Shown here: positions 15,711 to 62,465 of the stretch, piece after piece
How positions within the stretch are numbered: the first letter of the stretch is position 1
Layout: every line of letters begins with the position of its first letter
NCBI GenBank assembly: GCA_032718475.1
Contig: JAUCBJ010007821.1
Span: forward strand, 1 to 64,000
Source of the DNA: Nemertoderma westbladi
Lineage: Eukaryota > Animalia > Xenacoelomorpha
Length of the DNA stretch: 64,000 bases
Reading direction: 5' to 3'
Translations under genes and position numbers: made by a program
Notes under the pieces: generated by a model
What the model was told of the DNA's origin: nothing
The model's database searches: none
Seen by the model: the letters and a program-made list of their open reading frames with translations, nothing else

Positions 15711-15920
15711 ATTTATTACCCAGCGCACAATTGGCGGCCTAAGGAGACTCGTTTGGGGTCATTGACCTCTGAACGAGTGGAGGATCAGGACCGCCGCGCC
15801 CACAGCGACAACAGCCGGAGCTCACAGCTCGCGGCAAGTACCAGAAGGAGGAGTCCTTGGCAAGCGTCAAGCTAAGGACGAGCACTCGACTTATCGACTT
15901 TAAGTAGACTATTTGACCCG

Positions 15921-23445: not shown

Positions 23446-23450
23446 ACTTG

Positions 23451-32863: not shown

Positions 32864-32890
32864 CTTCGTGTATTTTCTTCACCTGTTGCT

Positions 32891-35800: not shown

Positions 35801-35959
35801 CCGCCGCACAAACACGCCACACTCGGCCGTCGCGCCTTTGCAGTGTCCGGCCCAACCCTGTGGAACCAGCTACCGCGGCACATTCGCCTCACTCCAACAA
35901 TAGATGAATTTAAATCACTGCTAAAAACGCACCTATTTAAGACAAGTTATTCTTATTAG
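32891..35959 (+). CDS. LINE ORF2: AP endonuclease + reverse transcriptase
   Basis: NVNARS, VTETWL, ADFN, IDL, SDH (APE); LDLSAAFDTV, GFPQGSCLG, YADD (RT); L2-like tail KLDYCN..LHWLPV..LWNQLP. Confidence 0.95.
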   Translation: MSSTNSAVSHSDIAHSTARSSRISDLVDSGNIIDQAGTAQETDCNGDQHIQPRSPCDQHRAISFSNVNARSIRNKIPNIMDYVITKRINICAVTETWLSSDDDAVRALCQIAGYSLFDSPRRTGRGGGTGIIAAHPFHAKLSQDGVFDSFEYSTWKIYNVKKLIFIIVIIYRRPYSTNHPVTVQQFIIDFPVFIEPLLTIKQKIIITADFNIHINDANDNYTAKFLDQIAGIGLTQHVTVPTHISGNTIDLIITRNNNELLISKPSIGEQLSDHYFVNALIKHPFSLPTIKTVTSRNLKDINLEKFRMDIQQSALCKQHIYSTLNVESSVTMYNDELTSIIDQHAPLTTRNIKVRNSNPWYNGALSELKRKRRQAERKWRRTRLPLDAAYLAAARDRYSHAIANAQKKFYTNKIIACGKDQKQLFTFIKTLTIPTAEQELPAPHSSLSLPDSFGDFFVNKIEKIRDELSVIRTEINNVPVSYNDDDVPLTTAEFSCFSPCTEEAVNKLIMNAPNKQCPLDPIPTFILKQVITELLPLITNIVNKSITTGSFPEQWREAIITAALKNVKLESIIFQNFRPVSGLAFLSKLTERAAISQLMPHIKPLFPINQSAYMQNHSTETTLLRVHSDILMAMDDQRVTLLVFLDLSAAFDTVDRKTLLDVLRTKMNITDVAHQWFTEYLTNRTQRVIIKGCCSKSLCVRHGFPQGSCLGCILFIIYVTAIYQIIERHLPDVQGYADDNQLYLSFKPDSESNENGAVKAMELCIDELRNWFINNWLKINDTKTEFLIIGTDQQLSKVNTSSITVGGHTINKTDNVRNLGAYFDSTMSMNTFVTKTCSSAFYHLRNIQRIRPFLNKTTTESLIHAFISSKLDYCNALYYGIPDYQIARLQRVQNAAARLVSGVRKFEHITATPTLKALHWLPVKKRIEYKIILIVFKSLHNKAPKYIDELISVYRSPYHSRSTDALVLRVPPHKHATLGRRAFAVSGPTLWNQLPRHIRLTPTIDEFKSLLKTHLFKTSYSY

Positions 35960-37754
35960 TTCATTTTTTCATATTTTTCGTTTTAACATCGCCATTTGTT
36001 TTAACCCCGCCAACATTCGTTTTAACTCATCTTTATTTGTTTTAACCCCGCCAGCGTCGTTTTAATTCATCCTTCATTTGTTTTTCAACGCCAGCATTAG
36101 TTATAAACTCATACGTCATTTGTTTTATAGAACTCGTCGGCGTTTGTTTTAACTTGTCCTTCAATTGTTTCAACTCGGCCAACAACCCATTGTTTGTTTT
36201 AACTCAATACTTGTCTGTTTTTAATTATGAAATATTTATTTTTACTTCATTGATTGCCTTTCGTGCAGCGCCTAGAATAATTAGTATCATTTTTAAATAG
36301 GCGCTATATAAATTATACATTATTATTATTATTATTAAGTTTGTAATCAGTCGATCCCGTGCCTAACTTGTTACAAGTTAGTAATTGGTCGTTCCCGTTC
36401 CTAACTTGTTACAAGTTTGTAATCAGTCGATCCCGTGCCTAACTTGTTACAAGTTAGTAATTGGTCGTTCCCGTTCCTAACTTGTTACAAGTTTGTAATC
36501 AGTCGATCCCGTGCCTAACTTGTTACAAGTTAGTAATTGGTCGTTCCCGTTCCTAACTTGTTACAAGTTTGTAATCAGTCGATCCCGTGCCTAACTTGTT
36601 ACAAGTTTGTAATCAGTCGATCCCGTGCCTAACTTGTTACAAGTTAGTAATTGGCCGATCCCGTGCCTAAGTTGTTACAAGTTTGTAATTGGCCGATCCC
36701 GTTCCTAACTTGTTACAAGTTTGTAATCAGTCGATCCCGTGCCTAACTTGTTACAAGTTTGTAATCAGTCGATCCCGTGCCTAACTTGTTACAAGTTAGT
36801 AATTGGCCGATCCCGTGCCTAAGTTGTTACAAGTTTGTAATTGGCCGATCCCGTTCCTAACTTGTTAAAAGTTTGTAATTAGTCGATCCCATGCCTAACT
36901 TGTTAGAAGTTAGTAATTGGCCGATCCCGTGCCTAACGTGTTACAAGTTCGTAATTAGTCGATCTCGTGCCTAACTTGTTACAAGTTAGTAATTGGCCGA
37001 ACCCGTGCTTAAGTTGTTACAAGTTTGTAATTGGTCGATCCCGTGCCTAACTTATTACAAGTTAGTAATTGGCCGATCCCGTGCCTAACTTGTTACAAGT
37101 TTGTAATTGGTCGACCCCGTTCCTAACTTCTAACTTGTTACAAGTTTGTAATTAGTCGATTCCGTGCCTAACTTATTATAAGTTAGTAATTGGCCGATCC
37201 CGTGCCTAACTTGTTACAAGTTTGTAATTGGTCGACCCCGTTCCTAACTTGTTACAAGTTTGTAATTAGTCGATTCCGTGCCTAACTTGTTACAAGTTTG
37301 TAATTAGTGCGCCAACCAAATCTTTATTGGAAATATTAGATTCAAAAATACAAACAAATACTAATTTTCGTTAAAATTGACTTAATTTTCTGCCGTTAAA
37401 TTATATTACTTAATTTACCATCAGGGATACTTTCAGTAAGAAGTGGGACCTTCGCGCAGCACGTGAGATAACTTTACTAATACTTTATACTAAGTATAAA
37501 CTCGAAAGGGTTATAAATAACATGTAAACATATCATCTCCCCCTGAACAATTTTACCCTGCAGCGACAGACTGGATAATTGCAGAAGGGTTAAACCATGG
37601 AATACTAAATATACTCGATAAAATTCATAAAAAATTTTTTGAATTTTATCGATTATCTGCTCATTATCTTTAACATTATATTATTCAATTAAAGTTAACC
37701 GCGTACGTACTTATTTTAATATGTAAATTATGTAAACATTTTATTATATATTTA

Positions 37755-38976: not shown

Positions 38977-38981
38977 ACCCA

Positions 38982-39519
38982 TGTTAACTTATTCAATCCC
39001 GCCAACACCCCATAAAGTTGTAAGCCGATAAGCAATATTGGGAGCCACGAGATTGGGCAATTAACCAACTCGTGCCATCCCAATAAGAGTGGGAAGGAAG
39101 CACACAATAGAGGGTCAGGGGCCAAACCCCTAACCCAAGGAGAACAGGTGGAGTGAACGGGAATACTCCACGGGGCGCCAACAAGGGTATTAACCAATCA
39201 GAGGGGGGAATGGCATCGATTGAGTAGCAGTAAGGCCACCGTGCAATATAACCAATAACCTATTAATCAGTGATTCAGTTATCTCAGTGCAGCAGTGCTA
39301 GCGTAGGGTACAGCCAATTAGTTTAGTTAGGGGATCACGGGACTTTAGTTACCGTATCCCGCCTACCGTATAATTCACAATATATCTATATCCTATAACC
39401 TATTATTATACACCGAACTTCAGAACTCAGTTATCTTTATTTCACTCTTATACACGGCGGGGACGCGTGGACTAAATACCACATCGGATAAATCGGGATC
39501 CCTCCTGGATCCCGTCACA
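38982..39519 (+). repeat. 5' LTR of element 2
   Basis: Matches 50196-50733; I saw one mismatch (LTR position 6). Confidence 0.96.
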
Positions 39520-39733
39520 GTAACTAAACCGAGCTGCCGCCCTAGTTAAACTCTAAGAACTGCAACCTAGCTAGCCGAATCATCAGGCTAGGAGGCCCAG
39601 GCGGACCCCGGGCGAAGATCAAACGATCCGCGAGGCCGCGACCAGGCGGTATAGGCCCACGACGCCGGAGCCATCGGTAACGGGTGACCCGGAAGTCCAA
39701 GAGAAGGGGGACCGTCTGGAATCAGAATCCGAG

Positions 39734-42700
39734 TTGAGAGGAGAGGGACTCGAGCCGGAGGATAGAGAGAACGAGGTCGAGGGAGAAAGAGACGAGTCGA
39801 CACGAGACGGAGAACGGCGCGCCGATGTCGCCGGCCAGCTACCGGCCGAGGGCGACGAGCGGCCCACCGAAACGGCGACGGTGGGGCCGACGGTACGACG
39901 CCGGACGCGAAGAGACGGAGGAGAGATTGGTACCGATGTCGCCGGCCAGCTAAAGGCCGAGGGCGACGGACGGCCCACCGGAACGGCGACGGTGGAGCCG
40001 CCGGTACGACGTCGAACCCGGAGGGCCGGAGGAGAGGTCGGCGACGAGGACGTCGGGGTATCAGAGCGACTTCGACGGGCCTACAACGCGACCCGAAGGA
40101 TGATAAAGGACGCCAAGAAGGAAGGGGCGAAGGTAGACGAGGTGAGACTGAGAAAGCGACTAGGTGAGTCGGATAGACACATAAATTACCTAATACGTTT
40201 TGGGCAAAGAGAACTAGCCGAAACGAGAGCACACGGGATTGCCGGGGAACTGTTTGTACTATGGGAGTGTGGGAGTATGGAACCTAGTGTAGCGTCAGTG
40301 TACATAGGGCCATACTTGGTCGATGCCCGGGGAGTAAAACCAGTAGGCTGGAGGGAACCCGAAGGGGGCGAATCCGAGGTTAACCCCGAGGATTCGGCCT
40401 CGTCGGTCGGAGAAAGCTCCGGGAAGCGGGGGGAAATCAGTAGGTCGGGAAGGCGGGGGAAATCCGTCGTAACCGATAAGTCTGTTACATCCTCCGCGAA
40501 AGGAAGAGCGGTGAGAGAGATAGGTGCCGAATATCGTCTCAGCATGGCAGCGAAAGATCATAGAGAAATGAAGGAACGGCTAGAGGAAGGGAGGGTGCGG
40601 TTAGAGAGGGAAACGGCATTGCTTAAAGAAACAGGAGAGAGGGCCGAAAGGGCTTTGAAAAGCCTAAGGGAGTATGATGAGATAGAGGAAAGGGAGTGTA
40701 GGGAGCGTGAGGCGAGAGAGGAAAGGGGGCGCAAGGAGCGTGAGGCAAGGGAGGAAAGGGAACGCAAGGAGCGTGAGGCGGAACGCAAGGAGCGTGAGGC
40801 GAGAATGGAAAAGGAACGCAAGGAGCGTGAGGCGAGAGAGGAAGGGGAACGCAAGGAGCGTGAGGCAAGGGAGGAAAGGGAACGCAAGGAGCGTGAGGCG
40901 GAACGCAAGGAGCGTGAGGCGAGAGAGGAAAAGGAACGTAAGGAGCGCGAAGTGAGACGAAGGGAGAGTATTAAGAGTGCTGCAGAGTCGGCCATTAGGG
41001 ACACCCGGGAGCGTGAGAGAAGAGTGGCAGAGACTGAGGGAGAAAACAAGAAAATAGAGAGACAACAGAGTGAGTCTGCGGGAGATGAGATTAAACGGGC
41101 GCACGAGTTGCAACTCGTGCGAAAAGCGCCGTCTGAAAGCGGGGCCGGCTCGGGTATTTTTAGGGAGCCGGGGGCCGTAGAAACATTTATTAATACCCCA
41201 CTGACAGGGACCGCACGACAGACTCAAGACTGGTGCGACCGTACGAGCGGGGGGGGTAATAATGATATTGGTACTGTAGACGTTGTTGATATTAATAGTA
41301 CCGTATGGGATAACACTAATCAAACCTTTATTGCAGGAAATACTTTGCCTAGTGGTAGTAATTTAAATTTAAATCAGAACAATCCCAATACTAATGTAGA
41401 AAATAATCCTAATGTTGATGTAGTTACGCAAAATAATTCAAATAATCAAAATAATAATCCGAACTCGGACCTACAAAATAATTTAAATAACGCAATTACG
41501 CAAAATAATTCGAATAATTTAAATAATGACCCATGCCCGAATTTACAAAATAACTCAGATAACGTAGTCGCGCAGAATAATGCAAATGGTTTTGTTTCAA
41601 ACGAGCAAATTGATTCCGTTTCTAATATAGGTGCTATTAATGCAAACACGTCGGGCCTACATAACCAGGGAGCAGAGGGCCTGGTAGGCCACGTAGTTAG
41701 TGGACAGGGAGCAGAGGGCCTGGTAGGCCACGTAGTTAGTAGACAGGGAGCAGAGGGCCTGGTAGGCCACGTGGTTGGTAGGGAGGGAGTAGAGGGCCTG
41801 GTAGGCCACGCAATAGCAGAGGGAGAGGCGGGGGTGAACAGACCCGACCGTGGTAGGGTTGATGTGTCGACTAGAGAGGTATATAATAGCGGGGAAAGAG
41901 GTAGCGAAGTTAGATGTAGCGAGTGGGGGGGGGGGGGCTACGAGGGCCCCACAACAGAGAGTTAGCGGCGAGAAGGGGGGGGGCAGAGAGTGTCCCACAG
42001 CCGTCAGCGGATAATGCGAGGGCCGAACAAGGTAAACCGCAACAACCGGCGACGGAAAGTAATAGGGGGATTGCGAGTATCCCCAGCGACGTGCGATCGA
42101 GCAGAGAAAGACAGGTTGACGTCGCGGGAGGGCAGACGGAGCGTCGAGCCCGATCAGAGGAGGAAAGAAGAACAGTGGGGTTTAACCGGGAGGTCGACGA
42201 GAGATCTCGTGAGCGGGAATATTCCACTGATAGGAGAAGAGAGGAAGACAGTAGTAGGAGTATCGCCGCAAACGATAGAAGAGCGAGGACGGACAGCGAG
42301 CCGTCGGTAGTCGAGATGAGAACGGAGAGTCAGTGGGGTCGGACTCCGGGAGATTGCCGTCGCCCCGGAGGGATGCGATCCGGTGAGACGCATTACACGG
42401 CGAGAGAGGGGTACGCGATGTACCGGTACGAAGATGAAAACAGTGGAGAGGGGGGTCGAAGAGAAACTTTCCGACGGAATATACCTACCGATCGAGAATA
42501 CGGTAGCCGCGGGGAGGATTATTCGAGAAGAATAAACTTCGATCCCGAGCAACACATGCAGACTGTAGGGCATACTGTAGGTCTTACTGCACATACCGTA
42601 GGCCATACTGAGAGAGGCAATGTAGGCGATAGGATAGCGCGGACAACGGGATTAAACCCGGAAGTCGCGGAATACATACCGGCGAGTAGGCCAGAAGCTG

Positions 42701-45616
42701 ATAGGCCTATACCGGTACCAGCACAGCAGTATGACTACAGCATGCAGGGACATAACATATACCCAGGGGAAGGGGGAATTATTGCGGATAGGTGCATGGG
42801 CCCCAACATATTAACATCAACCCCATTCCCAAACATACCGGTGGGGGGGGGGACAGGGTGACATTCCCCCATCACAATATCAACAATATACCCCGATGGT
42901 AGCAAGAACAACGAAACCCTTGGACGAAAACAGGTCGTGTGATACAGACATATGGAGGGGGCCGCTACCCCCGATGACATATCCGAGTCAGAGAAGATCA
43001 AGAAATAGGACGGACGAACCGCACCAGACAGGGGAAACTATACAGCACCCGTCGAATCCATTAGAAGCGCAGGCAATGGGGATGGCCACGTTGATCGATG
43101 CGTTGAAAACGAGGATCGAATTACCACCCGTGGAACCGTTCAAATTCGATGGGAGCAGGCCGGAAGAATACTTACAGTTTCGGCGAATGTATAGTAACGA
43201 AATACTAACAAAAAACTTGACGCAGGCGGAGTGCCTAAAATATCTACAAGTGTACACGGGAGGCCCAGCATACGATATCGTGAGGCAATACCAGGGAATA
43301 GAGGGCGGCTTCACGACAGCATGGCGGGCACTGGATAGGGAATACGGGCACCCGGCCAAGATCATCAGGCAGACGCTGAGAGGCATAACATCGGGTGGCC
43401 TACAGGATAATCCCGTTAGCATTAAGACGTTTGCTAACAAAGTCGAGAAGGCGCTGATCGTGCTGAAGACGCTAGACGCGCCATACGAGCTCAACGCGTC
43501 CAATAACATCACCACGATAGCGCAGGCACTACCGAGCTGGCTGCGCAACAAATGGAGGAAGATCGCTTTCTCCACCCGAGACAAGAAGGGTGCGGAACCA
43601 GGTTTAGAAGAAATGTCAAACTTCTTAAATTACGAGGCCGAACTAATAACGGACCCAGTTTATAGTGAAGATAGCCTGGGAAAGGGACCAAAGACAGATC
43701 ACTACAGGCCCAAACCAGAGCACAATACATCGAACGCGTTACCGAGACTCAGGCAATCATTGCCATATGCAGCGACGCAGGGGACTGCAAGTCCACAGAC
43801 AAGCGAAGATAAGACAACATCAAGGGACGGACAGGGGAACAATAACAACATGAATAAACATAACCCCAGTACGTCCAGTAGGCCAAATCCAGTCAATAAG
43901 AATAGTAGGGACTTTGGTACAAATATAACTGCGATACGCAACGCATTGTATAAAGAGGGCTACGACCCAAAGAGCAAATGCCAGTTACACGCAAATGCGC
44001 TTCATAAAACCATGAACTGCAGGTACTGGCAGGCGCTACCGAGGCAAGACCAGATAGATTACGCGTCGAGCAATAAAATCTGCTCGCGATGTGTAAAGAG
44101 TGGACACAAGGCCAGGGAATGCCAAGAGAAGCCGGTCAAGTTTGGCCAAAGGAGAGGCCAGACGATGGCAACGAGCACAGTAGGGGCGAAGAGGAGAGGA
44201 ACAGTGCTACTTGGAGTAGTACCAGTACGAGTGATCGGGGAAGGCAATCGATCAGTAACAACACTAATGCTGGTTGATAGTGGAGCTGCCTTCACATTAG
44301 TTGAGGAATGGGTAGCCGAAGAAATAGGGTTGAGAACGAGGCCAAGCAGGATGGCGGTGACAACCATCTCTAGCAAAGACGAGATCCTAGAGATGAGGAC
44401 AGGACGGTGCGCAATTGCAGCAGTGGCACCAGGATGCGATTATGGGGCAACCATCGACCCCATCCAAGTAATAGAGTCAATTAACATCAATGCCAGGCGG
44501 CCAACCAACATCGAGGTCGAGCAATACAAATTCCTGGATAACATTGACTTCTCAATCCCAGACGTGGACGTTAGGAAGGTATCCATCATAGTAGGCATGG
44601 ACTGCCCAACGGCCCACGAGAGAATGCAAACGGTCTTCGGCGAAGACAAGCAGAGCGACCCGGTGGCCATATTAACACCATTCGGGTGGACGCTGAGTGG
44701 TCCAATTAAGAGCAAGATACCATTCCATGTGTCCGAGAGTTCAGGATGCATGGTGCCAGGAACTGACGAGATAGAGGAGAGGCCAGAGATGGCTAGACAG
44801 CTAGAAGTAGAAGCAACACCAAGAGAGTGGGCGGAGGAGAATGGTATGGATGCAGAAGATCTAGAGACGATGGGTTGGAATAAGGGTCCCAGGAAGTATC
44901 GGTATGGAGATGGGGAGGAGCGGACGGTGGAGTGTCGGGAGGACAAACCGGAGAAGTGTCCGGTGGAGTGTCCAGAGGAGCGCCCGGAAGAGACGCCGGT
45001 CCGGTTGAGAGGCATACCGACAAGGGGGAAGCCGAGTAAGAATACAAGATGGAAAGGGAGAAGATGTGAGACGATCAGACCAGGGGCAGAGAAGCCCATG
45101 AATAAACATATGGTGGACAAAGGAGGCGGGAGAGTAGGAGGCGTGCTGCGCACGCACGCGGAACTGACAGAGTGCGAGGGGGCATTACATGGGCAGGCAT
45201 CGTGTATACCAAAGGACGAACGGGGGTCGTTGAAGCCTTTAATGCCAGCACACATATTAAGGGGGAGGCCAGCAGAGGTGGCATCTAAGATTAAGGAGAA
45301 GAACAGGGGCGGCATTATGCCACCGGGTGACACGTTGAAGGGTGGCACTTTGCCGCCAAGGGACGACCACGAGATCAGAAACATAAATAGAAGACAGCAT
45401 TTCCAAAAACAGGAGAAAAGACCACCTATCGAATTAACAAGGAGAGCGGAGCGAAGAATTAGAGAACCTATAGGGGGGCAGTGGGAGAGTTGCCTGCTGG
45501 AGGAATCACCCCTTGGGTCGCTGAGTTGTCCAACAGGTTGGACTGGGATGGAAGAGTTAGATCCGCAAAAGGGTGCGGGCAGAGGTGTTACCTGTCTTCT
45601 AGAAGGGGCACCTTAG
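39734..45616 (+). CDS. BEL gag-protease with RT/RNase H/integrase core deleted; two frame breaks at G runs
   Basis: Three consecutive ORFs broken at G13 (about 41925) and G9 (about 42844). KFDG..YLQF gag motif, CSRCVKSGHKAREC, protease LVDSGA..FGWTLSGP, integrase-tail remnant LKPLMPAHILRGRP; no YxDD. Confidence 0.8.
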
Positions 45617-45724
45617 AAGTGGAGTTAGAGTGGAGTTTAGTCGTCCAAGTTTTGGACTGAGGGGGGTGGGATTGAGGGCGAGACGCCCTTCCCACACAAA
45701 TAAAAATAAAATAAAAATAAAAAT

Positions 45725-46450
45725 AAGAGTTAGAGTTAGTAGGTACGTAGTACCTAGAGTTAGAGAGTTAGTAGGTACGTAGTACCTAGTTAGAGTTAGA
45801 GTTAGTAGGTACGTAGTACCTAGAGTTAGTTAGTAGGTACGTAGTACCGATAGTTAGAGAGTTAGTAGGTACGTAGTACCTAGTTAGAGTTAGAGTTAGA
45901 GGGTACGTAGTACCGATAGTTAGAGAGTTAGTAGGTACGTAGTACCTAGTTAGAGTTAGAGTTAGTAGGTACGTAATACCTAGTTAGAGTTAGAGTTAGA
46001 GGGTAGGTAGTACCGATAGTTAGAGAGTTAGTAGGTACGTAGTACCTAGTCAGAGTTAGAGTTAGAGGGTACGTAGTACCGATAGTTAGAGTTAGTAGGT
46101 ACGTAATACCTAGTTAGAGTTAGAGTTAGAGGGTAGGTAGTACCGATAGTTAGAGAGTTAGTAGGTACGTAGTACCTAGTCAGAGTTAGAGTTAGAGGGT
46201 ACGTAGTACCGATAGTTAGAGTTAGTAGGTACGTGGTACCTAGTTAGAGTTAGAGTTAGAGGGTATGTAGTACCGATAGTTAGAGTTAGTAGGTACGTGG
46301 TACCTAGTTAGAGTTAGAGAGTTAGAGGGTACGTAGTACCAATAGAGAGTTAGAGTTAGAGGGTACGTAGTACCGATAGTTAGAGAGTTAGTAGGTACGT
46401 AGTACCTAGTTAGAGTTAGAGTTAGAGGGTACGTAGTACCATTAGTTAGA
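45725..46450. repeat. Internal ~30-bp tandem array in element 2
   Basis: Units of (TAGAGT)n plus TAGGTAC-GTA-GTACCTA hairpin core, over 20 copies. Confidence 0.9.
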
Positions 46451-46941
46451 GAGAGAGAGTAAGAGGTAAAAAGGGGTAAAATAGGATATAGATATTAGTT
46501 AGCAGTAAGTAGAGTTAGTAGCGAGAGGGGGGCATATGAGTGCAGCTGGATAAATCGTGTGGCCACACGACGCATACTGCTGTACTGCATAGGCCCACTG
46601 AGTAGGCCAGAATATGGATCAGAGAATAGAATAAATCCATAGGCAGTAGTAAGTAGTAGGACAGTAGAATCAAAGCAAAATAAATAAATAAATAGAATAG
46701 GGCTAAAATCGAAAAATAGTGGTAACACAAGGAAAGTCGTTCTAGAACATAATAAAAGTAACGGACGGAAATTGTAAATTAGGCTGATTTACTAGCTCCG
46801 AAATTAATTAGATTAAATTAAGCTTGAAAGGCGCAGTTAAGTAGAAAAGTAGGCCATTATCGAACTGTACGAAACATCTTAATACATCACTCATCTGTAT
46901 TGCGCCTTGGTAAGGCACCACCCTACAGGTGAGCGAGTGTA

Positions 46942-49485
46942 GTGTTCGGAATGGCGAGTAAGCTGATCAGGAAGAGAAAGGCGGAGTCAGGAGGAAAAGA
47001 AATATTGGTGGATTTCACCGAAAGACACCCAGAGGAGAAGACGAGAGGATACTACGAGAGGTTGAAAAGGGGTCACGCGGCACGAGCGCTGCAGGATCAC
47101 TTCCGGGAGGCGCACGAACAGCGGTTGGTCGGGACCTACGGGACGCCGTCGCTGGACAACGCGATCTTCCAACACTTCCACTACGTGGTGAAGGGAGACG
47201 AGGCGAAGTTCGGGATTCCGAAGTATCCGAGGGAATCGCCGAGGAAGGACTGGAAAAGATTCATAGAGTCCGTCAACAGAGGAGGATATATGATCCTAGA
47301 TGACGAGGGAACCGTGGAAGACGAAGCGGGTTCGAGACGAGGAACGGCAGGGTCGGCCAGGACCATACTCCTGCATTTGGCAGCGCCAAATGGGGACATC
47401 TTCTTATTCGACCTAGGGACGTATGGGAAGAAGGACGGGCCGAAATTAGACCGATTGCCAAAAGCGGTACAAGTCTTAGTAAGAGAGAAGTCGACGACGA
47501 AAGTGGGATCGGCGATTCGCGAGGACGCGGAGAGGATCATCGGTCCGGACGCCACCAACCTCCTGGATATGCAGAAAGTCTTTATGGCTATGACTGCACC
47601 GGATGGATTGGGGGTGGTCGAGAACTCAGGCCAATGCGGGGCGGTGGCGATGGGCCAATTATTGGGGCTCGTATGCCACAAACCGATGGACTGGGGGAAG
47701 TTTAGGGAAGAATACGGAGCAGAACTAGCGAACTCGCTGAAGTGGGGAGCGAGACCGGGAAAGCAGGAGGTATATCAGTTTCGCAGAGGAGCGATAAAGG
47801 TATATCAGAAGCGATATATCCTGCAGGAGGACTGGATGATGATAAGTTTGCTTAACTTATTCATGACCGTAGTTATCGAAAGGGAACCAGGGGCATTTCT
47901 GTTATCGGGATCACCCCTAAGCTACAGGAGAGCCTTTAAAGTGGCCTTTGACGGTCTGGTAGACCACCCGGGGCTGAAGGGCGAGTCGGTGTACTACAAC
48001 AGCCGACATCTGGTAGACGGGGAGACAGATACACCGTATCAGAGATGGGAGCAGCTAGAGGCGGACAGACGAGAAGCAAAGCGACTGGAAGAAGTCGCTA
48101 GACGGGAGAGGATAGAAGCAGAGGAGAGGGAAGAGGAGGCCAGGGCACAGAGTTACGGCTTCGAGGAACAGGCGGGCCTAGACGAACTTCATTGGACTTC
48201 GTCAGGGAGTTCGGGGGAGTCTCTAGGGCGAGAATTGGGATGGACGGTGGGATCGCCGAAACAGTCGACGTCGGGGTTGCAAACGATGCCCATGCCAGCG
48301 GGCGCCGAGGGCGACCAACCGCCAAGGAAGCTAAGGGAGCTAGAGGGATGGAGAGCTACGGGCGAGAGCCAAGGCGGGAAGGGACATAGTGGATCCATCG
48401 GGATACCGGGGTTGGAAACACTACCAGAAGAGGAAGACGGCGACGACGAGTTCGGAGAGATACCGCCCATCGAGAGGATAGGCCACTCGGACACGGACTG
48501 GGTTGGCGGAAGGGTGGTGACAGCCAGTGGGGCAAGGGCCTTCTGGAACAGATCCGGCAAGCGGACCTGGGTGCACGAGGGGCCGGCGATGGATTTCGCG
48601 GGGAGCACCATCAGGTTGGGCGAGCAACCGGGAACGGCACCACGGATAGTATTCGGGGAGACGATGCCCGAAAGGGGCGGAGAGATAGACGTAAACAGGG
48701 AGAGCAACGTAGAGAAGTTCACCTACCAGCGACTCCATAGACCGCGGAGATCGCTTGGGACGAAAGACGAGGTGGGACGGGAGACATTGGTACTCGGCTG
48801 CGACTACTGTGGGAGACAGACCCATCGGGAAAGCAGCTGCCTATACCGGTTCCAACGGGGAACCTTTTGTCTCTATTGTAGAGAACCAAGTCACAGGATG
48901 GGGGCGTGTCCACGGTTGCATAACCGATGTCCAAAGTGCCACTTTCGGGGACACTACGGACGCGAGTGCGACTGGATGAGCGACGAGGAGAAGTTCACGA
49001 GGTTCGAGGAGTGGGCCGACGTCGGGGCCATGACGCGCCAGCGCATGAAGGCCCAAGAGTTCAAGTGGGGTTTCTTCCTCATAAACCAGGAGACCCACAT
49101 GGAAATCATAAAGCGAAGGTTACCGTTTACCTATCAAGAGGTAGCTACGGCGGCATCGTTCGCCGGAGTTATGAACACGCAACGGTACCTGGACAGGTGG
49201 ACACCAGAGAACCGGAGGGAGTTTAGGGATTTCTTGGCGGAACACGTACCAAAGGCAATGAAAATGATCCTATGGGACGCCACACGAGGGAGACAACCAG
49301 GCCATTCTGAGGGGCCACCGGCGAAGCGGTATCGGGCTTTAATAACACCAGCGCCCAAGGAGCCGACGACCGGGATCAGCAAGGAAGTGGCAGCGAAGGT
49401 CCGGAAGCAGAAAGCGGATGATGCCAGAGGAGCGGTGATAACCAAGAAACGGGCCAGGGAAGAGGACGTGAGGAGGAACAGATAA
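46942..49485 (+). CDS. Putative DEDDy 3'-5' exonuclease (WRN/Mut-7/EXD-like) with three CCHC zinc knuckles (first ATG 46951)
   Basis: ExoI-like MILDDEG; LLHLAAPNGDIFLFDL; LPKAVQVLVREKSTTKVGSAIREDAERI (ExoII-like); LLDMQ; ExoIII-like QKRYILQED. Knuckles CDYCGRQTHRESSC, CLYCREPSHRMGAC, CPKCHFRGHYGREC. Confidence 0.75.
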   Translation: MFGMASKLIRKRKAESGGKEILVDFTERHPEEKTRGYYERLKRGHAARALQDHFREAHEQRLVGTYGTPSLDNAIFQHFHYVVKGDEAKFGIPKYPRESPRKDWKRFIESVNRGGYMILDDEGTVEDEAGSRRGTAGSARTILLHLAAPNGDIFLFDLGTYGKKDGPKLDRLPKAVQVLVREKSTTKVGSAIREDAERIIGPDATNLLDMQKVFMAMTAPDGLGVVENSGQCGAVAMGQLLGLVCHKPMDWGKFREEYGAELANSLKWGARPGKQEVYQFRRGAIKVYQKRYILQEDWMMISLLNLFMTVVIEREPGAFLLSGSPLSYRRAFKVAFDGLVDHPGLKGESVYYNSRHLVDGETDTPYQRWEQLEADRREAKRLEEVARRERIEAEEREEEARAQSYGFEEQAGLDELHWTSSGSSGESLGRELGWTVGSPKQSTSGLQTMPMPAGAEGDQPPRKLRELEGWRATGESQGGKGHSGSIGIPGLETLPEEEDGDDEFGEIPPIERIGHSDTDWVGGRVVTASGARAFWNRSGKRTWVHEGPAMDFAGSTIRLGEQPGTAPRIVFGETMPERGGEIDVNRESNVEKFTYQRLHRPRRSLGTKDEVGRETLVLGCDYCGRQTHRESSCLYRFQRGTFCLYCREPSHRMGACPRLHNRCPKCHFRGHYGRECDWMSDEEKFTRFEEWADVGAMTRQRMKAQEFKWGFFLINQETHMEIIKRRLPFTYQEVATAASFAGVMNTQRYLDRWTPENRREFRDFLAEHVPKAMKMILWDATRGRQPGHSEGPPAKRYRALITPAPKEPTTGISKEVAAKVRKQKADDARGAVITKKRAREEDVRRNR

Positions 49486-50195
49486 GTTCCCGGAGACGAG
49501 GGAATGAGACTGAGACTGGGAAGTGGTGCGCCTGGAAGGCGCCGCATGTAACGTACGAACTATTAAGTATAAATTTAATTAATGCAAATAACTATATAAG
49601 TGCAATTTGTATGTACGTACGTAGTGATTAGCAGTAAAATACATACGTTTGGAGTAAGTACTATAGTCATACAACCTTTCTCAATTAGCTACTGGGACTG
49701 GGGGACAATTGACTATGGCACTATGGACGAGACAACTGACAATTTCACGCTTCTTGAGTGCGACGGCACGAGAGGGGGGGGAGGTTCGTCAGGAGAGATA
49801 AAACAGTCAAAGTGGAGGTTGAGAATCGGAAGTGAAGAGTGCGAAGTGCGGAGAGAGTGCGAACGCAATTCTAGTGTGGGGGGGGGAGAATAAGAGGCTG
49901 AGTGAGGGACGAGGAGGTCCGGGGGTATGAGAGAGTTAGGGTGAGAGTGAAGGTGAGATAGGGCGAAAATGTTGGGGAAACAAAAATCGCGTGAAGAGGT
50001 GAGCGCGATCGGCCCGACATGAGACGCCAGGCACACAGGGTAGCGTTATCATACCCATAGGGGGCGGCCTGGAAAGCCGGCTCCTAGAGAAAAGAATTCC
50101 ACCCCACACCCGATACTAGATCGGGATCCAGCGGGATTGTAACGCACTTTTTGGTTGATGCTATCTTCTTACCGGGAAGATAGCATGGGGGGGAG

Positions 50196-50733
50196 TGTTA
50201 GCTTATTCAATCCCGCCAACACCCCATAAAGTTGTAAGCCGATAAGCAATATTGGGAGCCACGAGATTGGGCAATTAACCAACTCGTGCCATCCCAATAA
50301 GAGTGGGAAGGAAGCACACAATAGAGGGTCAGGGGCCAAACCCCTAACCCAAGGAGAACAGGTGGAGTGAACGGGAATACTCCACGGGGCGCCAACAAGG
50401 GTATTAACCAATCAGAGGGGGGAATGGCATCGATTGAGTAGCAGTAAGGCCACCGTGCAATATAACCAATAACCTATTAATCAGTGATTCAGTTATCTCA
50501 GTGCAGCAGTGCTAGCGTAGGGTACAGCCAATTAGTTTAGTTAGGGGATCACGGGACTTTAGTTACCGTATCCCGCCTACCGTATAATTCACAATATATC
50601 TATATCCTATAACCTATTATTATACACCGAACTTCAGAACTCAGTTATCTTTATTTCACTCTTATACACGGCGGGGACGCGTGGACTAAATACCACATCG
50701 GATAAATCGGGATCCCTCCTGGATCCCGTCACA
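50196..50733 (+). repeat. 3' LTR of element 2
   Basis: TGTTAGC...CGTCACA followed by the TSD. Confidence 0.96.
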
Positions 50734-50738
50734 ACCCA

Positions 50739-50900: not shown

Positions 50901-51810
50901 ATTGACAATGACTAGGACCATTTTCTCCAATGCCTGCCCAGAATTGTAGAGTGACAGAGCAGGGGGTATCGTTGAACATATGTTACCAGTGAAATTAAAA
51001 ACAAAGCTTCCAAATCATAATTTTCGTCATCCCTGAAGCGCCATATATTTGAAACTGATTGATTTTACATGTTATCTACCCAGCCCCCCTCCCCTCCCCA
51101 TTAGTTGAGTTAGTCCACTGTCGTTACTGTTGGTGTTATTATAGCTGTCGTTTTCTCCTCTCCGTGTTTATTACATTTTTAAAATTCATCATGGCGCATA
51201 ATAATACAGTATATAATGTAGTAAATAGACCTCGTTAACTTCCTCTAGCAATAAAATAAAAATAAATATTTTATACAAAACATTGCCGCCAGAAACTTCT
51301 TGTTATAACTTACCGCCACTAGCTTAATCTCTTATCTTAACTCTTATCAACACTTAGCTTAACTTATCCTCATATGCAGCTCAGTGTTTTCCAACCATTA
51401 TGAACTCTACTAGTCAATCCCGTCTTGGAATTTACTTTTATTTTTCTTGTTTTCCATGTGAATTTGGATAAAGTTTCTAGTAGTAGCTGTATTTATAGTT
51501 AAAATCTAATCTATGGTGGTTCTCGTGTCTCGATGTAATTATTCTATTGTAACTTTTTTATGACAATATATGGACCGGGCCTATATCCCCGAGATAAGAG
51601 ATAAGAACCAGTTGACAAAGTGATTAATTAAGCGTTCAGATAGCTGATAAGCTGACATAATGTAAACTACAGTAAATTACATATATGTACATAATTGTAT
51701 GAAAAGTTGTTCCCGTTCAGGGTTAATGATCCGTGTTTATTTATGTAAATATTTACATTGTAAAGAGTTATTGAATTAATTAAATAAAGTTAGATTTCTT
51801 AAACATTACA

Positions 51811-54228
51811 ATGTTGCCTAGATGTGTGCAATGCTCATCAGTGAGACAGGCCCATCATTTGAAGATATGTCTAGCTGGTTTCATACTCCTTGTGCCTTTC
51901 GTGGTATATTTCACGACAGAAGTCAAAAACAATGATAATATTTATGATTCCTTACCACTGAATCTGCATCCCTGGAAGAAGGTATTAAACACCACCAAGC
52001 AATTACGTGATGTCTTAGACAGCACATGGATGAATGACTTACATCCTGACAAACTGTTTCCTGTAGACTTAGTCTACACCTGGGTGAATGGTTCAGACCC
52101 TGAAATGTTAGTAGAATTGGAGAAAGTCCAAAGGGAATTGGAATGGGAGATGAACATGGAAGGGAGGGTGAGGAGTGACCAATCCCACCCCGACGATCGC
52201 ACAAGTTCCAGCCGTTTCTATGACAACGAGGAGTTGCGATACTCCCTACGTTCTGTTGACCTGTATGCCCCGTGGCTTCAACACATTTACATCGTGACCA
52301 ATGGGCAAATCCCATACTGGTTGAACCTTAGCAATCCCCGGGTTACCATAGTAACTCACAATGAGATATTTGCTAACAAGTCGAATCTTCCCACCTTCGG
52401 TTCCCCCGCCATAGAGTCTCAACTTCATCGCATTCCAGGTCTCTCCGAGAACTTCCTCTACCTCAATGATGATTTTATGTTTGGTGCGCCAATCTGGCCC
52501 TCAGACTTTATCACACGCACCAATGGACCGCGTATCTACAAGACGAATTGGGCCGCCTCTGGAAAAAAAAACAACTTGCCATTCGGCAATTACGGCAATA
52601 CTGTGACTTATGTGAATGAATTATATAACAAAATGTTCGGGCGCAGGACCCGGTATATGATATCCCATATACCGTTATTTCTCAATAAACTAATTATAGA
52701 GGAATTACATGAAATCTTTCATGAAGAATTCATTAAAACAGCTTCCCATAAACTACGTCACGATGAAGATATGCAATTTGCCTTCTCCTACTTCAACTAT
52801 CTGATGGATGCCAAAGTGGAACTTGATTTTAGCCAAGTTTTTGATAATCTCGACACAGACGACTCCGGGGTGCTATCCAACAGAGAGTTGAGAGTGCTCA
52901 CAAGCAGGCTTTACCCAATACCGCTATCAAACTCCAGTTTAATTGAAATGGAGAATTTCATATCCGACTGCATTGAAAGTAACACAGAGAAATCGCTGCA
53001 GTTAGACAAGGACAACAACTCAACCAGCCGAACAGTATCTAGAGAAATCTTCCTTTCATGTAAACCTCTCCTGTTGATGATAAATAAATCCTCTATCTAC
53101 AGCAGTCGCAATAAATATCAGTTCGAAACCATGCAGGTCTCCACAAAATTTGGAAACCCGGAAACTAGGTTTCCGTAAGATTCTGATAAATTTCGAAGAT
53201 TTTTGAGATTTTCACTCCCTAAACACCTCAGATTAAAGGGAAAGAGAATTTAGTACTGTACGTACAGTACAATTTAAACCATCAAAAGTAGATCGAATTT
53301 ATAAGAATTTATAAAGTCAAACAATATACTCCAAATTTCTGAATTTCATGTCAATATATGGCCCTGTGAATTAAAAATGCTTCTGAATATAATTTATTTC
53401 CACACAAAAACTGATTTTCTGTATCTTGTTTTTATAATTTTGCTGAATAAAATTGCTTCGGAATATAATTTAGTTCCACAAAAAACTTACCGGTACTACA
53501 CTACTACAACTACCAGGTTATATTATTTTCTGTTAGATCATTTACTTTCAGTTTGGATCCGGTAGAAACTATCTGACTTTTATGCGCTAGTGCTACTATC
53601 AGATTGACTGAAGCCATACTACTGTCCTACTAACTAAACAGCCTGTGATCAGTTGTTAAATTATTCGTGAATTCCATCCATACTAACTAACTGTAAATAG
53701 AAAACTTGGTACAATTACAGAATTAACATCGAACTTGAGAACTTGCAGTCAAATTATTATTTGGATTCTTTTATTTTAAGCCAGAAAGCCTATGTATCTA
53801 ATTAGAATAACACTCAAATTGGTATAAATTAATAACTTAAGAATTAAAATCAGCTTAAGTGCTGCAGCCCTACTCAACCATCCCCAAATATTGCTCACTT
53901 TCACACTTAATCCAGTTGGGACACTGGAATCAATTAATTCAAAATTCGAGATTTTCGATGAAAAATTGTGGTTTCCGGAAGGTTTCAAATTTTCTGGAAG
54001 CTTGAAGCCATGTCAATCTTCCATGAGCAATATGTGTACATAACAAACAGCGTTTCCGAAACAATTAAACAGATGGATGAATACCGTCGCCACACTAAGA
54101 AGTTTATTTGTATTAATGATGGCGTCGATCAAAACAAACCCAATGCCCACATTGTTAAGGGAATCGTGAGGGAACTCTTGGAGACTCTATACCCAAAACC
54201 GTCCCAGTTTGAACTGTTGCAACACTAG
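51811..54228 (+). CDS. GNPTAB-like: Stealth-family GlcNAc-1-phosphotransferase (GNPTAB-like); coding segments 51811-53133 and 54013-54228
   Basis: N-terminal TM, CR1 [15 protein letters not shown]2 [26 protein letters not shown]3 [14 protein letters not shown]-hand [15 protein letters not shown]4 KFICIND..PSQFE. Confidence 0.9.
53134..54004. mobile_element. hAT-like MITE inside the Stealth gene
   Basis: 8-bp TSD AAACCATG / AAGCCATG; imperfect TIR CAGGTCTCCACAAAATTTG / CAAGCTTCCAGAAAATTTG; subterminal GGAAAC/GTTTCC motifs. Removal restores the frame. Confidence 0.8.
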
Positions 54229-57920: not shown

Positions 57921-58488
57921 AGAAAATGTACATTTATGTTAATGTCTAGAATATTGGAACCTAGGTTACGTCCCTCCCTCCCACTTTTCAGGGTCACCAT
58001 ATCATATTTCCCGGCACTTTGTAGGCCTATACTAAAACTCGTGACTAAAACTCTCGAAATATTTCTCACAGCCCAGCTGCATAATTTCCAAAAACCCTAC
58101 TGTTTCTTCACTGACAGGCAATACGTAATGTGTATTTCCTAATTCTTAGCACTGAGTTCTTTACCAAGGTCACCACTGATTGGTTCTTAAATAAGATTTA
58201 CTTGTATTACCAGTGTCGGAAAAATCAGCATGCTGCATTGCAGTGTCATTAAGAATGCTATGTCGGCTTATCGACAAAAGTTTAATATATATATTAACAT
58301 ACAATACAACCCTTGAATTAGTATAAATTGTGATTTTTAATTTGAATTAAGTAAAACATGAGTTGACTTAAGTTACATGCAATTAGCGATCAGCTGACGG
58401 CAAACAGCTGGTCGGAAGGTTTTATTCCGCATCTGGAGGCATTCGCAAGAGAACAAGCCAGAAAACGGGAGAAGGAAAGGGTGCAGTC

Positions 58489-61400
58489 ACGGTGGGAGGG
58501 ACATTGGTTTTGATGATGGGGCTTGTCTCGGTGGGAGGGACATTGGTTTTGGGGATGGGGCTGGTCTCGGTGGGAGGGACCGAGGTTTTGGGGATAGGGC
58601 TGGTCTCGGTGGGAGGGACATTGTTTTTGGGGATAGGGCTGGTCTCGGTGGGAGGCACATTGGTTTTGGGGATAGGGCTCTGGTCTCGGTGGGAGGGTCA
58701 TTGGTTTTGGGGATGGGGTTGGTCTCGGTGGAAGGGTCATTGGTTTTGGGGATAGGGCTGGTCTCGGTGGGAGGGACATTGGTTTTGGGGATAGGGCTGG
58801 TCTCGGTGGGAGGCACATTGGTTTTGGTGATGGGGCTGGTCTCGGTGGGAGGGTCATTGGTTTTGGGGATGGGGCTTGTCTCGGTGGGAGGGTCATTGGT
58901 TTTGGTGATGGGGCTTGTCTCGGTGGGAGGGTCATTGGTTTTGGTGATGGGGCTTGTCTCGGTGGGAGGTTCATTGGTTTTGGGGATGGGGCTGGTCTCG
59001 GTGGGTGGAACATTGGTTTTGGGGATGGGGCTGGTCTCGGTGGGAGGGTCATTGGTTTTGGGGATAGGGCTCTGGTCTCGGTGGGAGGGACATTGGTTTT
59101 GGGGATGGGGCTGGTCTCGGTGGGAAGGTCATTGGTTTTGGGGATAGGGCTGGTCTCGGTGGGTGGGACATTGGTTTTGGGGATGGGGCTGGTCTCGGTG
59201 GGTGGGACATTGGTTTTGGGGATGGGGCTGGTCTTGGTGGGAGGGGCATTGGTGGTTTTGGGGATGGGGCTGGTCTCGGTGGGAGGGACAATGGTTTTGG
59301 GGATAGGGCTGGTCTCGGTGGGAGGGGCATTGGTTTTGGGGATGGGGCTGGTTCTCGGTGGGAGGGACATTGGGTTTGGGGATGGTCTAGGTGGGTGGGA
59401 CATTGGTTTTGGTGATGGGGCTTGTCTCGGTGGGAGGTTCATTGGTTTTGGGGATGGGGCTGGTCTCGGTGGGTGGGACATTGTTTTTGGGGATTGGGCT
59501 GGTCTCGGTGGGAGGGACATTGGTTTTAGGGATGGAGCTGGTCTCGGTGGGAGGGACATTTGGTTTTGGGGATGAGGTTGGTCTCGGTGGGAGGGACATT
59601 GGTTTTGGGGATGGGGCTTGTCTCGGTGGGAGGGTCATTGGCTTTGGGGATGGGGCTGGTCTCGGTGGGTGGGACATTGGTTTTGGGGATGGGGCTGTTC
59701 TCGGTGGGATGGACATTGGTTTTGGGGATGGAGCTGGCCTAGGTTGGTGGAACATTAATTTTGGGGATGGGGCTGGTCTCGGTGGGAAGGACATTGGTTT
59801 TGGGGATGGGTCTGGTCGCGGTGAGAGGGACATTGGTTTTGGGGATGGGTCTGGTCGCGGTGAGAGGGACATTGGTTTGGGGGATGGGTCTGGTCGCGGT
59901 GAGAAGGACATTGGTTTGGGGGATGGGTCTGGTCTCGGTGGGTGGGTCATTGGTTTTGGGGATGGCGCCGGTCTCGGTGGGTGGGACATTGGTTTTGGGG
60001 ATGGGGCTGGTCTCGGTGGGAGGGACATTGGTGGTTTTGGAAATGGGGCTGGTCTCGGTGGGCGGGACATTGGTTTTGGGAATGGGGCTTGTTCTCGGTG
60101 GGAGGGACATTGGTTTTGGGGATGGGGCTGGTCTCGGTGGGAGGGTCATTGGTTTTGGGGATGGGACTGGTCTCGGTGGGAGGGACATTGGGTTTGGGGT
60201 TGGTCTAGGTGGGTGGGACATTGGTTTTGGTGATGGGGCTTGTCTCGGTGGGAGGTTCATTGGTTTTGGGGATGGGGCTGGTCTCGGTGGGTGGGACATT
60301 GGTTTTGGGGATGGGGCTGGTCTCGGTGGGAGGGACATTGGTTTTGGGGATGGGGCTGGTCTCGGTGGGAGGGACATTGGTTTTGGGGATGGGACTGGCC
60401 TAGGTGGGTGGGACATTGGTTTTGGTGATGGTGCTTGTCTCGGTGGGAGGGTCATTGGTTTTGGGAATGGGACTGGCCTGGGTGGGTGGGACATTGGTTT
60501 TGGTGATGGGGCTTGTCTCGGTGGGAGGATCATTGGTTTTGGGAATGGGGCTGGTCTCGGTGGGTGGGACATTGGTTTTGGGGATGGGGCTGGTCTCGGT
60601 GGGTGGGACATTGTTTTTGGGGATTGGGCTGGTCTCGGTGGGAGGGACATTGGTTTTAGGGATGGAGCTGGTCTCGGTGGGAGGGACATTTGGTTTTGGG
60701 GATGAGGTTGGTCTCGGTGGGAGGGACATTGGTTTTGGGGATGGGGCTTGTCTCGGTGGGAGGGTCATTGGCTTTGGGGATGGGGCTGGTCTCGGTGGGT
60801 GGGACATTGGTTTTGGGGATGGGGCTGTTCTCGGTGGGATGGACATTGGTTTTGGGGATGGAGCTGGCCTAGGTTGGTGGAACATTAATTTTGGGGATGG
60901 GGCTGGTCTCGGTGGGAAGGACATTGGTTTTGGGGATGGGTCTGGTCGCGGTGAGAGGGACATTGGTTTTGGGGATGGGTCTGGTCGCGGTGAGAGGGAC
61001 ATTGGTTTGGGGGATGGGTCTGGTCGCGGTGAGAAGGACATTGGTTTGGGGGATGGGTCTGGTCTCGGTGGGTGGGTCATTGGTTTTGGGGATGGCGCCG
61101 GTCTCGGTGGGTGGGACATTGGTTTTGGGGATGGGGCTGGTCTCGGTGGGAGGGACATTGGTGGTTTTGGAAATGGGGCTGGTCTCGGTGGGCGGGACAT
61201 TGGTTTTGGGAATGGGGCTTGTTCTCGGTGGGAGGGACATTGGTTTTGGGGATGGGGCTGGTCTCGGTGGGAGGGTCATTGGTTTTGGGGATGGGACTGG
61301 TCTCGGTGGGAGGGACATTGGGTTTGGGGTTGGTCTAGGTGGGTGGGACATTGGTTTTGGTGATGGGGCTTGTCTCGGTGGGAGGTTCATTGGTTTTGGG

Positions 61401-62465
61401 GATGGGGCTGGTCTCGGTGGGTGGGACATTGGTTTTGGGGATGGGGCTGGTCTCGGTGGGAGGGACATTGGTTTTGGGGATGGGGCTGGTCTCGGTGGGA
61501 GGGACATTGGTTTTGGGGATGGGACTGGCCTAGGTGGGTGGGACATTGGTTTTGGTGATGGTGCTTGTCTCGGTGGGAGGGTCATTGGTTTTGGGAATGG
61601 GACTGGCCTGGGTGGGTGGGACATTGGTTTTGGTGATGGGGCTTGTCTCGGTGGGAGGATCATTGGTTTTGGGAATGGGGCTGGTCTCGGTGGGTGGGAC
61701 ATTGGTTTTGGGGATGGGGCTGGTCTCGGTGGGAGGGACATTGGTTTTGGGGATGGGTCTGGTCGCGGTGAGAGGGACATTGGTTTTGGGAATGGGTCTG
61801 GTCGCGGTGAGAGGGACATTGGTTTTGGGGATGGGGCTGGTCTCGGTGGGAGGGACATTGGTTTTTTGGGGATGGGTCTGGTCGCGGTGAGAGGGACATT
61901 GGTTTTGGGGATGGGTCTGGTCGCGGTGAGAGGGACATTGGTTTTGGGGATGGGGCTGGTCTCGGTGGGAGGGACATTGGTTTTTTGGGGATGGGTCTGG
62001 TCGCGGTGAGAGGGACATTGGTTTTGGGGGTGGGTCTGGTCGCGGTGGGAGGTACATTGGTTTTGGGGATGGGGCTGGTCTCGGTGGGAGGGACATTGGT
62101 TTTGGGGGATGGGTCTGGTCGCGGTGGGAGGGACATTGGTTTTGGGGGTGGGGCTGGTCTCGGTGGGAGGGACATTGGTTTTTGGGGATGGGTCTGGTCT
62201 CGGTGGAGGGGCATTGGTTTTGGGGATGGGTCTGGTCTCGGTGGGAGGGACATTGGTTTTGGGGATGGGGCTGGTCTCGGTGGGAGGGACATTGGTTTTT
62301 TGGGGATGGGTCTGGTCGCGGTGAGAGGGACATTGGTTTTGGGGATGGGGCTGGTCTCGGTGGGAGGGACATTGGTTTTTTGGGGATGGGTCCGGTCGCG
62401 GTGAGGGGCATTGGTTTGGGGGATGGGTCTGGTCGCGGTGGGTGGGATATTCGTTTTGGGGATGG
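58489..62465. repeat. G-rich 39-bp satellite, about 100 copies
   Basis: Unit GGTCTCGGTGGGAGGGACATTGGTTTTGGGGATGGGGCT; higher-order block repeated at offset 1130. Confidence 0.95.

Follow-up and report, generated by a model that had tools for sequence, protein, structure and literature searches.

ORF3, an open reading frame carried by a retroelement of Nemertoderma westbladi, appears to be an accessory gene conserved across a multicopy family of BEL/Pao elements, and in its predicted product an exonuclease domain of the WRN/EXD2 type is linked to three CCHC zinc knuckles. We consider it very probable that the domain belongs to the DnaQ/DEDDy family, and within it to the WRN/EXD2 type, and that ORF3 is at the same time under purifying selection. 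The gene lies in element 2, one of two retroelements considered here from the window, that is, the whole stretch of 64,000 nt analysed. The arrangement itself, a retroelement with an accessory DEDDy ORF, has already been published for LTR elements of rotifers (PMC5408684).

Element 2 and its third open reading frame

The features of element 2 are listed in Table 1. Its two LTRs differ at a single site (537 of 538 identical), indicating a very recent insertion. Pfam searches identified a BEL-type gag (DUF1759, PF03564, E = 5.5e-11) and an aspartyl protease (PF13650, E = 2.5e-5) in frame C, and gave no match to frames A and B. The gag shares 23% identity with that of element 1, in the same window, whose 2821-aa polyprotein contains Peptidase_A17 and DUF5641. 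With this polyprotein as the query in tblastn, the gag of element 2 was recovered at E = 1e-6 and its knuckle and protease regions weakly, and nothing credible was found for RT, RNase H or the integrase core, which bears out the pol deletion proposed in the initial annotation. The ~300 codons past the protease contain at most faint pol traces, and their comparison with the pol of element 1 by blastp gave no significant match (best E = 0.33). Since RT, RNase H and the integrase core are absent, element 2 is a non-autonomous derivative, for which an RT tree is impossible; it is assigned to BEL/Pao by its gag and protease, its LTRs and its 5-bp duplication. Integrase-like words in the post-protease frame were recognized by eye only.

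Table 1. Features of element 2 and of ORF3 (window coordinates)
Feature	Position	Strand	Remarks
Target-site duplication, 5 bp	left 38977..38981, right 50734-50738	+	flanks both LTRs
5' LTR, 538 bp, TG...CA	38982..39519	+	one substitution vs 3' LTR
9-nt LTR segment complementary to first 9 nt past 5' LTR	39344..39352, second copy 50558-50566	+	candidate self-primer
Primer-binding position	39520..39528	+	no TGG start
5' open frame A, 796 aa, charged, low-complexity	39575..41965	+	overlaps frame B at 13-G run
5' open frame B, 313 aa	41920..42861	+	overlaps frame C at 10-G run
Frame C, gag-protease, 933 aa	42815..45616	+	DUF1759, knuckle, aspartyl protease, then ~300 open codons
Tandem repeat block	45698..46534	+	between pol remnant and ORF3
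A+T-rich spacer	46535..46953	+	AATAAA at 46630, 46679, 46687, 46751; ambiguous splice site 46927-46933
ORF3, 843 aa from first ATG	46954..49485	+	no transmembrane segment
Putative DnaQ/DEDDy-family exonuclease domain, ~aa 100-312	47239..47877	+
ExoI D120, E122 (DDE, aa 120-122)	47299-47307	+
ExoII K187-G189-D195	47500-47526	+	D195 codon 47524-47526
ExoIII Y292, E296, D297 (YILQED, aa 292-297)	47815-47832	+
Linker, ~290 aa: charged, then Gly/Ser/Pro-rich	47878..48740	+	from composition
Three CX2CX4HX4C zinc knuckles	48799..48969	+	starts 48799, 48868, 48928 (aa 620, 643, 663)
Polypurine tract	50187..50195	+
3' LTR	50196..50733	+

Without TGG at its start, the primer-binding position is not a standard tRNA site, and no tRNA gene was found in the window. 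The complementarity of its 9 nt to a segment of the LTR has a chance probability of ~0.003 in a Markov control, and pairing of this kind resembles self-priming of the Tf1 type (PMC4600332). A splice-made primer junction was also sought in both LTRs; the best in element 2 was of 10 nt, at offset 1, and element 1 gave none of 10 nt or more. The self-complementary primer position recurs in element 1, which lacks an ORF3-like ORF, so that self-priming does not in general require the nuclease.

The region 46942-49485 contains no stop codon (the stop-to-stop frame is 46933-49485). A stop-free frame of the length of ORF3 has a chance probability of ~1e-16 at the local base composition, and the two other plus-strand frames contain 49 and 14 stops over the same interval. 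An uninterrupted ORF of 847 aa had been described here; the frame is indeed open, but that count began at a GTG, and 843 aa are obtained from the first ATG. Residue numbers in this work count from 46942. Two antisense frames (47181-47774 and 48189-48722) were taken as shadows of ORF3. A candidate acceptor, CCCTACAG ending at 46928, is present as annotated, but its reading as an acceptor is ambiguous, since the continuation GTGAG fits a donor equally well. In the BEL/Pao elements roo, Cer7 and Tas, an env-like ORF3 between pol and the 3' LTR encodes membrane glycoproteins. ORF3 occupies the same env-like position, as had been noted initially, being preceded by the gag-protease frame and its pol remnant and followed by the 3' LTR, but a hydropathy scan found no transmembrane anchor in it; the highest 19-residue value is 1.3 and falls within the nuclease domain. 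ORF3 is therefore not an env gene.

The ORF3 domain and the DEDDy exonucleases

The nuclease domain is distant from known proteins. It shares 12-21% identity with known exonucleases and matched nothing in Pfam, NCBIfam, PHROGs or PDB sequences; a plasmid search returned one match at E = 4, and viral and metagenome contigs contained nothing for the nuclease or knuckle regions. No relative was found among 5.8 billion proteins searched with the whole ORF3 (words from its first 500 residues), nor for aa 100-330 among the shorter proteins of that set. The single match among 1.84 billion representatives (E = 2e-15) was rejected as an artefact, a 19-residue match occurring 14 times in a tandem-repeat protein. 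In both of these large sets the searches covered the N-terminal half of ORF3.

Profiles of four subfamilies were built from reference sequences: WRN-like (17), RNase D (10), NrnC (6) and Pol I (6). The WRN-like profile gave the ORF3 domain 4.7 bits, against 3.4 for the best of 1000 shuffles; of 1000 shuffles, 38 did as well as the domain with the RNase D profile, 133 with that of NrnC and 303 with that of Pol I. A profile of 38 WRN/EXD2-type domains scored 14.6 bits (E = 8.6e-7 as a single comparison), the best of 1000 shuffles reaching 4.7 bits and the reversed ORF -1.3. When the same profile was run against 634 six-frame fragments of the window, the ORF3 domain came first (E = 0.004, the next at 1.1). 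The statistically supported match is restricted to aa 139-217, and the placement of ExoI and ExoIII relies on a MAFFT alignment and on a guided structure model. In the ESM Atlas, the PF01612 set accounted for 25 of the 30 feature matches of aa 60-350, the other five being unnamed clusters, and the best match (0.94) had 179 of 256 features in common. The WRN/EXD2-type relationship that had been suggested is thus supported by the profiles and the ESM Atlas, but not by the Pfam search proposed as a check.

ExoI-like DDE and ExoIII-like Y...ED motifs had been annotated, and both lie at the expected coordinates, the latter as YILQED. The annotated ExoII pattern KVG....D has no match as written; KVG is followed by five residues and then D, the spacing of human WRN (KAGVGIEGD), and all 17 bacterial WRN-like references contain KxGxxxxxD. 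In a MAFFT alignment with the 38 references, D120, E122 and G189 fall on columns conserved in all 38, D195 on a column with Asp in 37 and Y292 on one with Tyr in 36. The column of E296 holds Asp in 36 references and gaps in the remaining two: where the canonical ExoIII Asp would stand, four residues past the Tyr, ORF3 has Glu296, with Asp297 one place further and ~20 additional residues ahead of the motif. The description of the DEDDy site as intact therefore stands for D120, E122, D195 and Y292 but not for the ExoIII acid, and the active site is predicted to be D-E-D-E with Tyr. Because hmmalign aligned only the central part with ExoII, leaving out ExoI and ExoIII, and hhalign against exonucleases gave a probability of 40% locally and 7% globally (ExoI and ExoIII being unaligned globally), these two motifs are placed less firmly than ExoII. 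Overall, ORF3 resembles the WRN/EXD2/mut-7 (Nibbler) group of PF01612 in having DxE, KxGxxxxxD and a Tyr-containing ExoIII in register, and differs from it in lying below Pfam detection, in its ExoIII Glu and pre-ExoIII insertion, and in its mobile-element context.

AlphaFold2 run without an alignment failed to fold the domain (pLDDT 32); guided by an alignment of 32 exonucleases, it gave a model with pLDDT 70.9 and pTM 0.72, which is partly circular, having been fed exonucleases, so that its structure matches are not independent. The best Foldseek match of this guided model was the RNase D of T. brucei (E = 1e-5), and EXD2 and Egalitarian were matched as well; its structure neighbours also include Nibbler/mut-7, EXD1, QIP and giant-virus exonucleases. 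With VIA, the exonuclease domain of apicoplast Pol, diDNase, WRN, the T. brucei enzyme (TbRND) and RNase D were tied at Z 12-13 (rmsd 3.1-3.6, 157-175 residues aligned). The guided model is compatible with DnaQ-fold nucleases and does not constitute independent proof.

The three CCHC knuckles were found where they had been annotated, and not one of 20000 shuffled ORF3 sequences contained even a single CX2CX4HX4C. To judge from composition, the Gly/Ser/Pro-rich part of the linker ahead of them is probably disordered. The knuckle array of TbRND was the second-best match of the knuckle region among PDB sequences, at a non-significant E of 0.13, and the ESM Atlas leads for aa 575-800 were all <0.9. 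TbRND (PDB 7C42, 7C4C) also carries tandem CCHC knuckles after a DEDD exonuclease, but it is a cellular mitochondrial enzyme with four knuckles, a 28-aa linker and a canonical DEDD site (PMC7797062). ORF3 has three knuckles, a linker of ~300 aa and additional N- and C-terminal regions, and the common architecture is probably convergent.

Variation among copies and comparison with other element-borne exonucleases

Three DNA runs each contained over half of the sequence words from the ORF3 region. In run X1, 8068 contigs fell on 46560-50190, with identities from 99% down to under 90%, and they spanned ORF3 plus its non-coding flanks. Both ORF3 and these flanks are multicopy.

Among the best 40 of 548 variant rows, 38 were within ORF3, 29 of them synonymous and 9 not (p = 2e-9), the synonymous expectation derived from the observed mutation spectrum being ~29%. 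The nuclease domain had 54 rows, and the 40 of them that were listed comprised 30 synonymous and 10 other changes (p = 2e-9), and p was still 4e-5 with all 14 remaining rows counted as non-synonymous. When both listings were pooled, 56 of the 73 distinct listed variants were synonymous (41 of 51 in the nuclease domain), an implied ratio of ~0.13 that refers to the best-supported rows rather than to a random sample, and to non-independent sites. The knuckle half is thinly sampled, with only nine listed variants past aa 312, six of them synonymous. None of the 73 creates a stop codon. No listed variant alters D120, E122, D195, Y292, E296 or D297, and the one listed change at D195 (40 of 54 rows) is synonymous. 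As a frame control, the same 73 variants were read in the other frames: the antisense frame with common third codon positions gave 51 synonymous, as expected, and the other four gave 3 to 17.

Of the 12 indels listed, out of 43 in 46560-50190, 11 fell outside ORF3 and one, in frame, inside it, a contrast that is inflated by repeats in the flanks, ORF3 making up 70% of the interval. No indel among those listed fell in the nuclease domain. Contig joints in run X1 indicated that some copies carry deletions inside ORF3. All variants were read from short contigs, which may derive from pol-less or from complete elements.

ORF3 is thus under purifying selection among related copies. That it should be multicopy and non-neutral was a test set beforehand, and the run X1 contigs and the 56 of 73 synonymous variants bear it out. 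The initial annotation had based selection on the intactness of ORF3 while pol was deleted; selection holds, but through variation among copies, and not through this single copy, whose intactness is no evidence because its LTRs differ at only 1 of 538 sites.

DEDDy ORF3s downstream of pol are reported for the rotifer elements Juno and Vesta and for Terminons, and in the available text of these reports their activity is undemonstrated (PMC5408684, PMC5718144, PMC6431247, PMC6338049). The likeness to ORF3 is drawn here from their published descriptions. The ORF3s of Juno/Vesta and Athena/Terminon are, as here, separate DEDDy-family ORFs in the env position, without a transmembrane segment and with one catalytic Asp replaced by Glu (PMC5408684). 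They differ in their host elements, the rotifer clades Juno and Vesta as opposed to BEL/Pao, and in being RNase D-like with a DEED site, in which the third acid is changed (PMC5408684), whereas the ORF3 studied here is changed at the ExoIII acid and has a WRN-type ExoII. A triple CCHC array is not described for them in the text available, and the rotifer ORF3s sequenced there (env and GDSL types) showed no departure from neutrality, in contrast to the strong selection found here (PMC5408684). Dada transposases also contain a transposon-encoded DEDDy exonuclease domain, but in a DNA transposon, inserted inside the transposase and with all four acids canonical (PMC3706591). In the main texts of a largely open-access literature, we found no retroelement exonuclease that was BEL/Pao-borne, WRN-type or fused to knuckles.

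Possible roles of the ORF3 product

ORF3 is somewhat more likely to be catalytically active than inactive. Our preferred reading, with a probability of roughly 0.4, is that it binds the element's own RNA and trims its 3' end. In TbRND, single-stranded RNA is gripped by the CCHC knuckles, which enhance both binding and cleavage at a DEDD site with two metals, and trace activity is left when the ExoIII Asp is missing (PMC7797062). By analogy, the knuckles of ORF3 would hold the single-stranded RNA of the element and feed its 3' end to a two-metal site, and the protein would be an RNA-binding 3'-5' exoribonuclease, perhaps with reduced activity. It might strip tails or decay marks from genomic RNA, or trim the self-primer to its duplex, as a self-primer of this type would need a defined 3' end; that the nuclease trims the self-primer of element 2 is speculative. 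Action on the RNA of the element or its family is favoured because ORF3 is selected in a family of which at least one copy borrows a helper RT. The own-RNA reading is preferred to an inactive adaptor, to the destruction of small RNAs and to a role on DNA. The more specific proposal, that a BEL/Pao lineage lacking RT and integrase keeps an active RNA exonuclease for self-primer trimming or for destroying silencing small RNAs, is doubtful.

An unlikely alternative, though the best placed, is that ORF3 is a catalytically weak or dead RNA-binding adaptor, comparable to Egalitarian or EXD1, which carries, exports or shields the RNA of the element. The Glu in place of the ExoIII Asp would suit such a protein, the fold matches of the guided model include both of these proteins, Egalitarian and EXD1, the three knuckles could bind RNA without catalysis, and inactive DEDD derivatives that retain RNA binding are noted in the rotifer report (PMC5408684). 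Nevertheless, D120, E122, D195 and Y292 are all retained and are unaltered by the listed variants (40 of 54 rows), Glu296 is still acidic and adjoins Asp297, and the ExoII motif is WRN-like, all of which speaks against this reading.

Nibbler/mut-7, EXD1 and QIP, all structure neighbours of the guided model, operate in small-RNA pathways. ORF3 might accordingly lower silencing of its family by degrading or over-trimming piRNAs or siRNAs, or by removing their tails, an explanation that ranks next and that we also regard as unlikely. Strong selection on ORF3 would agree with it, TbRND trims the tails of small guide RNAs (PMC7797062) and arenavirus ExoN is described as suppressing host immunity. 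The benefit would, however, be common to copies without the gene, making selection at the level of the copy harder to explain; our literature search found no TE-encoded exonuclease with such a role, and rotifer families bearing ORF3 are still covered by small RNAs (PMC5408684).

An accessory role in reverse transcription, as a proofreader for the helper RT or a trimmer of cDNA ends in the particle, seems improbable. ORF3 is separate from pol and is retained in an element without RT, no packaging route is known, and the diverse cloud of copies, many of whose contigs are under 90% identity, does not suggest high fidelity. Such a role would nonetheless fit the VIA ranking, in which WRN ties for first place with polymerase proofreading domains, and knuckles of the nucleocapsid type bind ssDNA too. 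DNA 3'-end processing has been proposed for the DEDDy domain of Dada (PMC3706591). Finally, the missing domain matches in Pfam, NCBIfam, PHROGs and PDB sequences and the 12-21% identity might suggest a recently captured host gene carried as a neutral passenger, or chance acidic motifs in an unrelated protein, but this is very improbable, being largely refuted by purifying selection together with a profile score far over shuffles (14.6 vs 4.7 bits), and opposed also by the multicopy flanks and by the lack of a close cellular homologue among the 5.8 billion or 1.84 billion proteins.

Since the rotifer report of 2017, in which activity was undemonstrated, it has been an open question why some retroelements encode 3'-5' exonucleases. 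The present case adds the BEL/Pao group, motifs of the WRN/EXD2 type, a built-in putative RNA-binding module and purifying selection. Primer trimming or small-RNA destruction, if true, would give a retrotransposon-borne exonuclease a demonstrated enzymatic role, of which we found none in the literature examined. The ORF3 family is high-copy and recently active, and offers a compact and testable enzyme candidate. A further question is how an accessory gene can be retained by selection when its element relies on a helper for RT.

Element 1 and its surroundings

The window holds two BEL elements, and the features in and around them are listed in the table. No exonuclease ORF, of the kind that element 2 carries with a WRN/EXD2-type domain and three CCHC knuckles, was found in element 1 (1061-23445). 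Gag-like minus-strand frames lie on both of its sides, so the insertion apparently interrupted the gag of a third BEL element; one of the frames contains the start of the BEL-type gag domain DUF1759 and the other the knuckles. The fragment of element 2 found elsewhere in the window (30999-31151) is not adjoined by an LTR. Regarding the remaining features, the Stealth-family protein has a weak EF-hand match and is surrounded by transposons, and the 39-bp array is a source of many spurious long ORFs.

Features of the window
Feature	Position	Strand	Details
Element 1 (BEL)	1061-23445		LTRs ~2.2 kb
Inverted-repeat insertion in its 5' LTR	about 2195-3576		
Polyprotein of element 1	5794-14259		2821 aa
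Internal tandem duplication of element 1	11586-15884 and 15890-20191		4.3 kb; copies 99.9% identical
Gag-like frames flanking element 1	2-844 and 23345-25930	-	one each side
Element 2 fragment	30999-31151	-	3' untranslated region and polypurine tract; 83% identical
LINE	32060-35959	+	endonuclease and RT
38-bp tandem array	36185-37441		after LINE
Stealth-family protein	51784-53178	+	464 aa, single frame; CR1, CR2, CR3, E to 2e-45
39-bp tandem array	58432-62700		G/T-rich, ~4 kb

Coding capacity of element 2

In element 2, the 5' coding region is divided among three overlapping frames, with runs of 13 G and 10 G in the overlaps (window 41925 and 42843); the split may reflect either slippage in this copy or an assembly error. 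Past the protease, the same frame stays open for ~300 codons (44700-45616), a length with a chance of about 2e-7 at this base composition. Integrase-like words in it are no more than faint, which suggests an old, reshaped pol remnant rather than a fresh deletion.

Candidate primer sites

A TGG primer site is absent after the 5' LTR in both elements. Instead, the first bases past this LTR could pair without a mismatch with part of the element's own LTR: 9 bases in element 2 (39520-39528, complementary to 39344-39352; chance 0.003) and 10 in element 1 (4634-4643, complementary to 2182-2191 and 22385-22394; chance 0.002). In both, the complementary LTR segment is followed by one base and then GT, which in element 1 begins a canonical donor, GTAAGT. 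Judged from these sequences, both elements are candidates for Tf1-like self-priming.
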